From a virus (lineage: Duplodnaviria > Heunggongvirae > Uroviricota > Caudoviricetes): a DNA stretch of 64,000 nt. The stretch's first letter is position 1; each line of letters opens with the position of its first letter. Location: IMG/VR virus record IMGVR_UViG_2721755655_000008; one strand, given 5' to 3'. The position numbers are program-made. Shown here in pieces: positions 3,001 through 6,000 of the stretch.

Positions 3001-6000
3001 TGTTTGCGCATTGATGCCGAGATACGCTTCCAGTCTTCGCGGTCGTTGTCGATAACTTCATTTTTTGCCCAGCGATGGATGCTGCCGTCAATGTTTCCGG
3101 CATCCACATCACCAGGCCAGAGAGCGTAGGCCAGTTCGTCATCCAGTGTTTTCCATGTCTGCTTATATTCGCGACGAATGACTGCAGTGACAGGGGGGAT
3201 TTTTTCTGCTGAGTTTTCAGTGTGCTGTCGGTGGACTCTGGCGCGGGCGAGATCAACAACAGACGTGTATTTTCCGGTTTCCTTGCGTTCACCTTCGCGA
3301 CGTTTTTTCCAGATGCGCATTTCTGCCTGAATTTCGGGCCATTTGGCACCAGGCTTACATTTATGCTTAACCCACCCGATGGCATGCAGCTTAAGCTCCG
3401 GATACATGGCGTTAACTTCTGGCATTTTCATCAACGCTTCAACGATATGTCCGTCGAATGTTGCCATGTCTTCCTGCAACAATTCCTGCGCGCTAATCAC
3501 CATATCAACGGTGATGTTTTCACATGTGTCGAACTTAACCATGACAGCGTTCTGTACTTCAGGGGCCAGCTTGTCAAAAGCGACGTTCATCGGATCGGAT
3601 TCAGTCTCAACCGGGACAAAGGAAGCAGCCCCCTCATCCCAGCGGTTTTCCTGCATATATTCAGCATCCCAGGAATCGAGGGCAGGGCGGGGTATACCGG
3701 GTTTATCCTCGCAAACAAGAAATTTATAAGCGCAGTCCTGAGCAGCCGGATAATGCTCCAGGAATTGCCAGTGAAATTTTGCGCGGGCGCGACGTTCATC
3801 ACCGGCTTCAATGGCAGTGGCTACAGCGACTGCACCTTCTTCCTTTATTGCCTGTTCGTCCGGAATGGCGGCGCAAATAAAGACTTTACTCATTTTGTTT
3901 TACCTCATTACAGATTTAAGGGTGAACAAATCCCTGCCATTGCTGGCATATAAGAATGAAATCGGATGTTTATTACGGAACTGTTTTAAAGACCTGCCGG
4001 GATTTCGTTATTATCCTGGTGAATAACTTTATCGACAGGGTAACAGTTACCGGGAATTTTCTGTTCGGTTGCTGCAGTCACACACTCCTGCATTGTCCTG
4101 TGAACACTGACTGCAATATCAACTGGCTCTCCGGAAACAAGAAAAACTGTCAGAACAAGTGCAAATGCTGTATTCATTGCCAGCATCCTTTTTGTATCGG
4201 ACGTAAACGGGCCAGCATTGAAAGAATGCATATTTTATTTAATAACTCCCGTTCGTGTTTTCTCTTGTTAATGGCATCTTCAGTAAATACAGGGTTACTG
4301 ATAGTGACACCAATTTCAAAACAACCTTCAGACGTATTAACGTTTGGTAATAACGTTTCCATTATCGCGTCCTCAACAATGAATTTTGTGATGCGGTGCC
4401 TGGTGCCTCCAGGTGACGTTAACCAGTTAACAATTAACGCCGGATACAGAGAATCCCCCCATAACACTGTTTTTGGTTTTAACTGTTCCGCGTGCGCTTA
4501 GCCGCATTCACTGCATCACAAAATTCACTTTAAAAAGGGCGGACATCAGTTCATGGGCAAACAGATGCCGCCAAACGTCACCAGAAAATTGATAACAGAG
4601 GGCGTTGCAGCGGGGTTGTCACTTAAGCGTATGGTCAACCTGACAACCCGGTGTCCTCAACGGGGAAGGAATAACCCCGCCATACTTACCGCTGCGCCAT
4701 TTCGCGTTATGCTCTGACTTTTCAGAGAAATATCCTTTCAGTAAACTGTCAGTGCCGGATGTTCACCCGTGTCCGGCGCACGCACTCCACTTCACCCGTG
4801 GAGAACTCCTTAATTACCAACCCTCAGGAGGGTGAATGTTAAAATCAACTCTTATTGCTAAATGCCTTTATCAAAATCGCATGGTAAGCAGCATTTCAAT
4901 AGGCGAGTCTGCAGTTAAAAGTATTTTCGAAGAGTACTTTCCCGGGCATGATTTTAATAAATGGAATACCAAATTACCGCCAGCAGTTTCAACGCGTATT
5001 CTGAAAGCAACCGAAAGAGCAAGTACAATTCGCGTTAACTATTTCATTAAAGATTTGTGGGATCTTTGATATCCACAGAGCCTAAAGTATGTGCATATGG
5101 ATGTGCTATTATGCGCCCTCGCAGATTTGCATCATTTTCTAAATTCACTGAACGAAACAGGGCATCAACAAGGCTCTGTACAATGCAAAGGCAATCGAAG
5201 ACTGTCGCCGTTTCTGTTTTGATTGATGAAAGAACATGGCCATTCACGCAAACAGAAATTACCCGTTTATTAACATCGCTTTCCTGCTTTTGATTATCAG
5301 AACCATATAGCCCAGAAAAAGCATTGCGCACATTACGAACCATATTATCGATGGTTTCTTTTTCTGCGGTACTAAGGTCAAGAGTAGCCAGTTGTGAACG
5401 AACTATATTCGATGCCATTTCCTGTAATGGCGTTGGTAAATCTTTAAATTCCATTATTAGCCTCGTTGGTTAGCTATTAACGTGGGTATGTAATCATTCT
5501 GGCAATGCTTAATGCCGCTGCTTTTTCCAGATTGGTGATATCCTGCTCCAGAGCGGACAGATTTTCAGCCTGCTTAGCCCTGGCTTCATTGGCCCATTTC
5601 AGGTCCTGCACCGCCTTAATTTTCTGGTGCATCCACTCATAAAGTTCATCATCGGTATAGTCTGGCGCGATGATGACGGGGTCTCGTTTCTGCATGTCGG
5701 CTCCTTGTGGTTAGCGTTGCCTGCTTTTTAACCACGTCAGGCGAGGTGGTATCCTCTGAGGGGTCTGTTACTCGAGAGGAAATTGGTTATGAATACAATC
5801 AAGTTTTCTTGCCCAGAATGTGGTGGCTAAGTCTTTGACACATCCTTTAAGCCGCAGGGCTCTGACAGTTTCGCGGGAGCCATCTGCAAAAATTGTGGTC
5901 ACCTTGTAACTGAAGATGAGTCCTCGCAGTTCGATGACGAAATCGTTGACAATATCTTCGGTGCACTCACCAGAGACTTTCTGAAGTAAAGGCGCATACC

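Follow-up and report, generated by a model that had tools for sequence, protein, structure and literature searches.

Gene organisation of the two loci

The window of the present study, a stretch of 64,000 nucleotides (nt) from the IMG/VR record IMGVR_UViG_2721755655_000008 (Caudoviricetes), is Escherichia coli O157:H7-like DNA with the early regions of two lambdoid prophages, and between positions 4400 and 5800 it is 100% identical to prophage Sp9 of E. coli Sakai and to EDL933. In each early region a small plus-strand gene meets a minus-strand gene tail-to-tail beside a DicF RNA: ECs1762 and ECs1763 in prophage 1, a gene for 69 amino acids (aa) and one for 212 aa, here called D-type, in prophage 2 (Table 1). 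Both pairs were found to be stable two-gene units which recur in other genera and elements, and they lie in a polymorphic slot that Qin/DicF-type lambdoid prophages hold between the last early-left gene (ydfC or a DUF1391 gene) and the leader upstream of dicF-dicB. What such pairs might do, and how they relate to known prophage systems, is considered thereafter.

The minus strand of prophage 1 carries the repressor (6331..6738), a 99-aa gene, ydfC (5477..5695) and ECs1763, followed by the convergent ECs1762 and, beyond it, by the DicF-like RNA, dicB, a DUF1482 gene and recE. Prophage 2 shows the order LexA-like repressor, DUF1391 gene, D-type gene (with an N-terminus that, as in ECs1763, is recognised by the motif MEFKDLP), convergent 69-aa gene, DicF and dicB. 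The second pair abuts at 56530/56531 with zero bases between the stop codons, and since the first overlaps by 23 nt, a terminator is impossible between the genes of either pair.

A preceding sequence-only reading had placed four open reading frames (ORFs) at these loci, and all are present, although those of prophage 2 probably start further in than had been assumed: the plus-strand gene at 56321, because the GGAGG falls within the first four codons of the longer ORF, and the minus-strand gene at 57169 (212 aa, MEFKDLP...), both in agreement with PGAP. Its description of the surroundings proved accurate, in that DicF lies beside both cassettes, with a divergent and in Rfam sub-threshold copy in prophage 1, that both plus-strand genes possess strong Shine-Dalgarno sequences (AGGAGG and GGAGG, respectively), and that the two prophages share a conserved upstream region. 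High-identity DNA is continuous from the dicF side to 4782/56261, ~50 nt short of each plus-strand ORF, and past this point the likeness between the prophages consists of short weaker matches inside the N-domain codons only. The two minus-strand proteins likewise share the proposed N-terminus of ~50 aa, with 27/50 identities (54%, E = 2e-17) and no alignment after residue 50, and pairwise comparison confirmed that the two plus-strand proteins are unrelated to each other. The DicF copy of prophage 1 has retained the 5' half of DicF and has a different 3' hairpin.

Table 1. Features of the two loci (positions are those of the window).
Feature	Position	Strand	Remarks
ECs1762 (ECs_1762, WP_000920491), 77 aa	4836..5069	+	phrog_10348; listed as 'hypothetical protein'; cargo gene of the slot in prophage 1
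ECs1763 (ECs_1763, WP_000394552), 135 aa	5047..5454	-	phrog_1363; listed as 'hypothetical protein'
MEFKDLP N-domain codons of ECs1763	~5305-5454	-	shared N-terminus of ~50 aa
Acidic A-domain codons of ECs1763	~5047-5290	-	conserved partner of ECs1762; C-terminal part also matches the stand-alone phrog_23433
Tail-to-tail overlap of ECs1762 and ECs1763, 23 nt	5047..5069	both	direct reading
69-aa cargo gene, prophage 2 (WP_001133037)	56321..56530	+	start as in PGAP; phrog_4274; ORF open from 56309
D-type gene, 212 aa	56531..57169	-	phrog_2151; ORF open to 57181; MEFKDLP N-domain, linker, acidic alpha/beta C-domain of ~110 aa
Leader allele I	4754..4835	+	hairpin 1 4754-4777 (GCCGGA-N12-TCCGGC), hairpin 2 4785-4803, Shine-Dalgarno AGGAGG 4826-4831
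Leader allele II	56233..56320	+	hairpin 1 56233-56256, hairpin 2 56261-56285 followed by a T-run, Shine-Dalgarno GGAGG 56311-56315
Divergent DicF-like small RNA, prophage 1	4537..4586	-	Rfam DicF 43.5 bits, E = 6.4e-8, below the gathering score of 48
DicF small RNA, prophage 2	55931..55982	-	Rfam RF00039, 75 bits

Co-inheritance of the gene pairs

Homologues of ECs1762 with 57-66% identity were found in prophages of Proteus, Photorhabdus, Dickeya, Yersinia, Serratia (two loci), Salmonella and Xenorhabdus, each convergent with a gene for the acidic C-terminal domain of ECs1763 (A-domain) and overlapping it by 23 or 26 nt, an overlap present in 28 loci of other genera. The A-domain homologues, aligned from eight other genera, share 27-42% identity with the C-terminal ~80 aa of ECs1763 and the motifs VNG, DYL, SLE.EAN..G.T..H and I.DPK.L. 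An ECs1762 homologue was accompanied by an A-domain gene in 20/20 cases (11/11 IMG/VR and 9/9 genome loci); conversely, 17/19 A-domain loci of IMG/VR possessed an ECs1762-family gene, with overlaps of 23, 26 or 51 nt. In the two exceptions (L230 and L235) a homologue of the 99-aa gene of the window follows instead, and in Photorhabdus the ECs1762 homologue is frameshifted next to an intact A-domain gene. The neighbours of the pair change every time and were YfdP, a CsrA-like gene, sieB, a 307-aa gene or directly the repressor.

In other genera the A-domain stands alone as a protein of 77-85 aa or, in Yersinia, is fused to a YdfC-like N-terminus; the MEFKDLP N-terminus, which the sequence-only reading had described as conserved, is thus optional.

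The pair of prophage 2 behaved similarly, with a D-type gene next to the 69-aa gene in 74/74 IMG/VR loci and the 69-aa gene next to a D-domain in 72/77. Three of the five exceptions are contig ends, one is a deletion (L393), and in the last (L385) the D-type gene at 2014-2649 (-) is paired with a different convergent gene of ~170 aa with a coiled-coil segment and CxxC/CxxC motifs. Five divergent D-type loci all show the 69-aa gene in abutting position (5/5). In Salmonella enterica (L206-L208, ~3000-4820) two modules stand in tandem, first a D-type gene of 200 aa and its 69-aa partner, then a MELKDLP gene and its 64-aa partner (MSEQELKLGA); leader hairpins follow each module, and the whole is remote from dicF/dicB, on an integrative element that carries a Mu-type repressor.

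Both window pairs are one-to-one in the E. coli survey sample described below. A tblastn search with pair 1 against GenBank phages returned 12 records only, all at least 98.7% identical, and the E. coli sample of this pair is therefore uninformative on covariation, as it contains almost no sequence diversity. Altogether, a plus-strand gene without its minus-strand partner was encountered in 0/94 cases, while the partner is sometimes alone or re-partnered (L230, L235, L385). The covariation of a variable C-domain with its convergent partner, as proposed by the sequence-only reading, consequently stands for both window pairs, which persist across genera and elements, and falls as a one-to-one rule for the whole slot: other slot types mix, and the independent assortment that had been named beforehand as refuting was seen and holds for those types.

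Conservation of the plus-strand genes

The plus-strand ORFs are conserved genes. ECs1762 was significantly enriched in the TRAPP RNA-associated proteome of uninduced Sakai stx- cultures, a detection of the native protein, and was labelled above background in a polynucleotide kinase (PNK) assay after UV cross-linking, which was carried out by over-expression; no RNA-binding domain was detectable in it according to the authors (PMC7618764). An exhaustive HMMER search yielded an ECs1762 family of 103 clusters at 50% identity, mostly of 75-78 aa, in which Trp43 is invariant and the motifs M.KS..IA.CL, F..FP...F..WN and FI.DLW are conserved. The AlphaFold2 (AF2) model built from the family alignment displays five helices with a predicted local distance difference test (pLDDT) of 95.3 and a predicted template modelling score (pTM) of 0.84. 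No fold relatives of this model were found, the BFVD match being one family member only, and the family sequence had no match in Pfam or the PDB.

For the 69-aa gene the ratio of non-synonymous to synonymous substitution rates (dN/dS) was 0.22 compared with 0.4-1.4 in three antisense control frames; three other plus-gene families gave 0.15-0.27 and the D-type minus-strand gene 0.31. Lack of conservation of these ORFs had been named beforehand as fatal to the idea of a two-gene module; checked against native protein detection, 103 clusters and a dN/dS of 0.22, they turned out to be conserved. Both products are basic, with an isoelectric point of 9.5 for ECs1762 and 9.7 for the 69-aa protein, and both genes are AT-rich, with a GC content of 36% and 37%, respectively, versus 51% for the window.

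The slot and its content

Escherichia coli K-12 Qin possesses the order dicA-ydfA-ydfB-ydfC, followed by ~340 nt and dicF, so that ydfC leads straight into the conserved leader and the cassette is missing, as had been suspected. Because K-12 ydfC joins the same leader directly, the cassette of ECs1763 and ECs1762 is a clean insertion or deletion, limited by the ribosome-binding site of ECs1763 on one side and that of ECs1762 on the other. At the equivalent place of K-12 Rac, flanked by ydaF, a DUF1391 gene, and by the kilS small RNA/kilR division inhibitor, lies sieB on the opposite strand, with a 4-nt overlap with ydaF. In a Salmonella prophage (L222) a SieB-family gene (PF14163) at 1695-2177 (+) directly precedes the ECs1762 homologue on the same strand, and this common orientation suggests a small cluster of lysogen-expressed genes set against the early-left operon.

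Two sets of IMG/VR loci, redundant and mostly from E. coli, were surveyed: 80 loci were retrieved via the N-domain, hence with a bias to relatives of ECs1763, and 120 via an exact 16-mer of the conserved hairpin, independently of slot content. Together with the window and K-12 they amounted to 181 slots, 131 of which are distinct over 1 kb upstream. The slot is empty, as in K-12, in 38/131 distinct slots; 27/131 hold solely an N-domain gene of 124 aa (named B) whose stop codon lies 40 nt from the hairpin; 59/131 contain a convergent plus-strand ORF with a strong Shine-Dalgarno sequence and an ATG 69-80 nt from the anchor; and the content of 7/131 is unclear. The plus-strand ORFs encode 57-101 aa and fall into 14 BLAST clusters, two of which are merged by PHROG 8894, leaving 13 families. 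Their minus-strand counterparts are mosaic, with at least seven different C-domain clusters behind the MEFKDLP N-domain, and certain ones lack the N-domain (MKNCDAYH, 80 aa).

At least 13 unrelated plus-gene families thus use one leader platform, to which they are joined at their ATG. Leader allele I is conserved up to the ATG before seven unrelated ORF families and allele II before nine, and as the conservation ends exactly there in both alleles, the start codon is the recombination joint. Hairpin 1 (GCCGGA-N12-TCCGGC) is common to both alleles, while hairpin 2 is allele-specific; hairpin 1 of allele I and the region toward dicF recur in prophage 2 and K-12 Qin. Other genera show a hairpin at equal distance with compensatory stem changes (GCCGGG/CCCGGC versus GCCTGA/TCAGGC), and a conserved TGnTATCTT motif after it. 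When folding was compared with shuffled sequences, the plus-sense RNA gave z = -2.36 for allele I and z = -2.73 for allele II, the other strand +0.21 and -1.14; the leader therefore fits a 5' untranslated region of the plus-strand genes, since folding is significant in plus-sense RNA only. Hairpins acting as nut/put-like antiterminators or as intrinsic terminators of the early operon were also considered and ruled out, as there is no U-tract in the operon sense and the fold is significant in the plus sense only. The literature searched contains no description of the slot, the gene pairs or the leader.

Some further cargo families carry recognisable features. The two sharing PHROG 8894 are MAKFTVRIEL (94 aa; L180, L183) and MHSKS... 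(100-101 aa; L069, L181), the former of which scores 21.2 bits against Pfam GhoS at a cut-off of 21, and two others are small zinc-ribbon proteins (MPTKLCPACN, MSATTTKCPK).

The minus-strand proteins

That no known domain can be recognised, as the sequence-only reading had stated, was confirmed for all four proteins and their neighbours, for which Pfam, NCBIfam and PADLOC give none above threshold; matches such as ROS_MUCR and P33MONOX at E ~0.1 were dismissed as chance. Seven proteins from the two loci had no profile match in PADLOC-DB v2 up to E 1, and the PHROG matches are to families of unknown function only, five of which have the N-domain in common. When homologues were initially sought with the 55-aa N-domain, only short fragments came back. 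The N-domain was modelled as a helical hairpin of 50 aa without secretion or delivery features or a family match. The D-type protein has 153 homologues of 65-100% identity in Escherichia and Salmonella, and its AF2 model (pLDDT 68) shows generic fold matches only. No profile similarity was detected between the components of pair 1 and pair 2, and in both pairs the plus-strand protein is basic and the minus-strand C-domain acidic. In the literature ecs1763 appears only as a PCR (polymerase chain reaction) marker associated with enterohaemorrhagic E. coli (EHEC) (PMC4060028).

A second exchangeable module, 'LKHxIALLLEDA..L...PNAGTEARI' (LKH), was noticed in L088, L123, L168, L180, L186 and the genes of 133/137 aa such as that of L097; it forms small stand-alone early proteins of 48-119 aa, begins a 239-aa protein (L144) or is fused behind the MEFKDLP N-domain.

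Further features of the prophages

The 99-aa gene of the window (ECs_5719, phrog_21318; 5768-6067 (-)) has its homologues in L230 (1741-2034) and L235 (~1740-2103), where they are nearly wholly overlapped in antisense by a zinc-ribbon ORF of 66-94 aa (CxxC...CxxC); no antisense zinc-ribbon ORF accompanies the gene of the window at 5768-6067. A sub-threshold STnc100 match (32 bits, E = 6e-5) lies in the dicF-dicB spacer of prophage 1 at 4343-4548 (-), and a full STnc100 copy (175 bits) in the same prophage at 16736-16944 (+), adjoining AgvB (16946-17005) and two tRNA genes (16394-16623). Both prophages contain a sok antitoxin RNA, at 11618-11767 and 63192-63366 (+) with 104 and 113 bits, and hok/sok type I toxin-antitoxin loci are therefore implied.

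A possible mechanism and its alternatives

The favoured reading joins the anatomy of the slot to a lysogen-expressed effector with an early-operon neutraliser, following a SieB/Esc-like logic, and as a whole it is given a probability of roughly 0.45. Its two parts differ in standing: anatomy and pair conservation are held with considerable confidence, while the function as effector and antidote is tentative and put at clearly less than even odds. Most plausibly, each pair combines an RNA-binding effector made by the prophage with an antidote that the phage encodes.

DicA represses the dicB operon of K-12, and early-left operons are silent in lysogens. With the early operon repressed, the leader would drive the plus-strand gene in the lysogen and thereby yield a small basic protein, an RNA-binding one in the case of ECs1762. 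Upon induction, or upon infection by a related phage, early-left transcription would proceed through the minus-strand gene, which sits in the operon also bearing dicF-dicB, and in antisense across the plus-strand gene. This antisense passage would lower expression of the latter, and the acidic C-domain protein now made would neutralise its product. The plus-strand protein might accordingly serve the prophage as an effector in superinfection exclusion or in modulation of the host or of RNA, the minus-strand C-domain would be the phage's own antidote, and, owing to convergent transcription, one gene would be expressed at the expense of the other. Outside this core pair stands the MEFKDLP N-domain, which would be a shared accessory that can be exchanged, and possibly a handle for recombination.

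Several observations agree with this proposal. The slot is polymorphic, and its leaders, which fold significantly in plus sense only, precede genuine genes; sieB holds the corresponding position in Rac; and the pairs persist while their neighbours change. The asymmetry of orphans, where the plus-strand gene is never alone and the minus-strand gene sometimes is, would be expected of effector and antidote, and the basic plus-strand protein facing an acidic C-domain in both window pairs fits an effector and its neutraliser. Going further, one could propose a so far undescribed class of prophage two-gene modules, in which a small nucleic-acid-binding effector and an opposite-strand early-operon neutraliser have overlapping convergent 3' ends, the lysis-lysogeny state sets the effector/antidote ratio, the ECs1762 family represents a new five-helix RNA-binding fold, and many unrelated pairs are swapped as cassettes on a common platform beside dicF-dicB; this wider generalisation is considered doubtful.

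Several observations weigh against the favoured reading. Promoter scans of the E. coli leaders revealed no convincing sigma-70 promoter for the plus-strand genes; a weak candidate, TTTTCA-N17-TAAACT, is located immediately before hairpin 1. The basic/acidic pattern fails in some other slot pairs. The B C-domain stands without a partner in 27 distinct loci, beside MSTENDEIIN/MGFDVNETLN in 14 and beside MTSKNVNIQF in 6; the LKH module was seen with any of four partner clusters or by itself, and partner cluster 6 beside two different minus-strand genes. The detection of ECs1762 might stem from a spontaneously induced subpopulation, and distant homologues of it (26-31% identity) reside in chromosomal, non-phage settings without an A-domain partner. 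Finally, overlapping or abutting gene ends are hard to split by recombination, so that co-inheritance and orphan asymmetry could reflect linkage and small samples, with 2 to 3 informative orphans only.

The strongest alternative is that the two genes are independent neighbours, the plus-strand gene being a stand-alone moron, a cargo for lysogenic conversion or defence, on a conserved expression platform and the minus-strand gene an unrelated mosaic early gene, joined by nothing except the 3' overlap. The mixing of B-domain (none or two partner families) and LKH (four), as well as plus-strand genes next to minus-strand genes devoid of the N-domain, speak for it, and so do the AT-rich, moron-like composition of the plus-strand ORFs and the place of sieB, a single-gene exclusion function, at the same position in Rac. 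Moreover, the 124-aa B gene stays unchanged whether or not a plus-strand gene lies behind it; the MTSKNVNIQF gene, for instance, is a clean insertion or deletion, as the B protein is unchanged to its last residue. It is opposed by the pair of ECs1762 and A-domain, intact at 57-66% and 27-42% protein identity over eight genera while flanks and N-terminal fusion change. Recombination evidently reaches the A-domain boundary, yet separation was seen only as loss of the plus-strand gene (2/19 A-domain loci), and never as a plus-strand gene without partner (0/94). Independence of the two genes is on this evidence regarded as unlikely, if a serious competitor.

A reversed polarity, in line with the toxin/immunity-like option of the sequence-only reading, would make the minus-strand C-domain a toxin or a host-takeover function within the early lytic programme. 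The plus-strand gene would then be the immunity of the lysogen against leaky expression, perhaps acting at the RNA level like the type V antitoxin GhoS. It would suit a plus-strand protein made in the lysogen and binding RNA (PMC7618764), and the match of one other cargo family to Pfam GhoS, whose PHROG a second one shares. The neighbouring dicB and dicF, moreover, are known growth inhibitors. The orphans and the charges point the other way, for which reason this polarity is weighted lower: the putative toxin occurs without the putative antidote in L230, L235, L385, the 27 B-only loci and Photorhabdus (frameshifted plus-strand gene), whereas the antidote is never alone, a pattern opposite to the usual decay of toxin-antitoxin loci, and acidic C-domains with basic plus-strand proteins correspond to the usual polarity of antitoxin and toxin. 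We consider it improbable.

The leader might, as a third alternative, drive an antisense transcript which controls the early-left operon and the maturation of DicF/DicB, with the plus-strand ORFs as incidental passengers. Convergent overlap without terminators does force an overlap of sense and antisense transcripts, the leader is present in K-12 Qin without a following plus-strand ORF, and it folds as plus-sense RNA. Against such an RNA-level element stand purifying selection on the plus-strand proteins, the conserved strong Shine-Dalgarno sequences, and ECs1762 itself, which was detected as a protein and belongs to a deep, well-folded family, so that this alternative is rated very improbable. 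A last possibility, that chance or faulty annotation produced the plus-strand ORFs, could be read from their shortness, from their lack of a known domain and from the overlap of one of them with the end of another gene. It is practically ruled out by the detection of ECs1762 in mass spectrometry (PMC7618764), by the 103 clusters of its family, in which W43 is invariant and motifs are conserved, by a dN/dS of 0.22 against 0.4-1.4 in control frames, and by the presence of these ORFs among the PGAP calls and in PHROGs.

Significance

The slot is present in several copies in E. coli O157 as well as in other pathogenic E. coli; ecs1763 is in use as an EHEC PCR marker, and ECs1762 belongs to the small number of RNA-binding proteins specific to the pathogen that have been confirmed in EHEC. 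Should the effector/antidote function hold, the slot would amount to a compact store of at least 13 small systems governing competition between related prophages, with gene regulation hard-wired to the lysis-lysogeny switch via the convergent overlap. If it is wrong, the leader would still be a natural expression platform and the ECs1762 family an orphan RNA-associated fold worth solving.

Comparison with known systems

By sequence, the window pairs belong to none of SieB, GhoS, the known toxins and antitoxins, or the PADLOC systems. With polymorphic toxin/immunity systems, such as contact-dependent inhibition (CDI) and Rhs, they share a conserved N-terminal part with variable C-domains, a small variable gene next to it, conserved sequence at the cassette boundaries, and tandem stacking. 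They differ in that the N-domain of the slot is without delivery features and dispensable for the pair, and in that the small gene is convergent instead of a co-directional gene downstream.

Toxin-antitoxin loci resemble the pairs as two small, adjacent and co-inherited genes, a basic nucleic-acid-binding and an acidic member, one of which never occurs without the other, and two other cargo families of the slot resemble the GhoS endoribonuclease. Neither window plus-strand protein matches GhoS (PF11080), and no homology to a toxin or antitoxin family or fold was found in the window pairs. In contrast to type II systems, the genes do not form an operon, as they converge and either overlap by 23 nt or abut, and they stand under opposite regimes, lysogenic versus early lytic.

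Moron and anti-phage hotspots of the P2/P4 type (PMC9122126) agree with the slot in the fixed site between conserved genes, with presence, absence and replacement among relatives, in AT-rich cargo of many unrelated families, and in an orientation against the neighbouring lytic operon. Instead of bringing its own promoter and terminator, the cargo of the slot is grafted at its ATG onto a backbone leader including the Shine-Dalgarno sequence, has no terminator, and is usually tail-to-tail with a variable early gene; no cargo matches a known defence system (PADLOC-DB v2, proteins of the two loci).

SieB/Esc differs in several respects. SieB, with 160-162 aa, is about twice the size of the slot proteins (57-101 aa), ECs1762 is modelled as all-helical with 77 aa, and Esc is an in-frame product of sieB, whereas here a separate convergent gene is present; among the four window proteins and 56 members of the ECs1762 family there was no match above threshold to SieB (PF14163) or another Pfam family. 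SieB is membrane-associated, and the escape of P22 from it reportedly works, after work by Ranade and Poteete in 1993, through Esc and antisense RNA. The likeness lies in a gene which the prophage expresses and which is embedded in the early-left region, opposite to the early operon. In Rac, sieB is convergent with and overlaps ydaF, upstream of a small RNA and a division inhibitor (kilS/kilR), just as the slot is situated relative to dicF/dicB, and sieB lies immediately beside an ECs1762 homologue in the Salmonella prophage. P22 is not excluded by its own SieB (PMC10461980), a precedent which fits the effector/antidote reading. The closest known analogue would thus appear to be SieB/Esc by position and logic, the moron or defence hotspots by population behaviour, and toxin-antitoxin systems by the logic of the gene pair.

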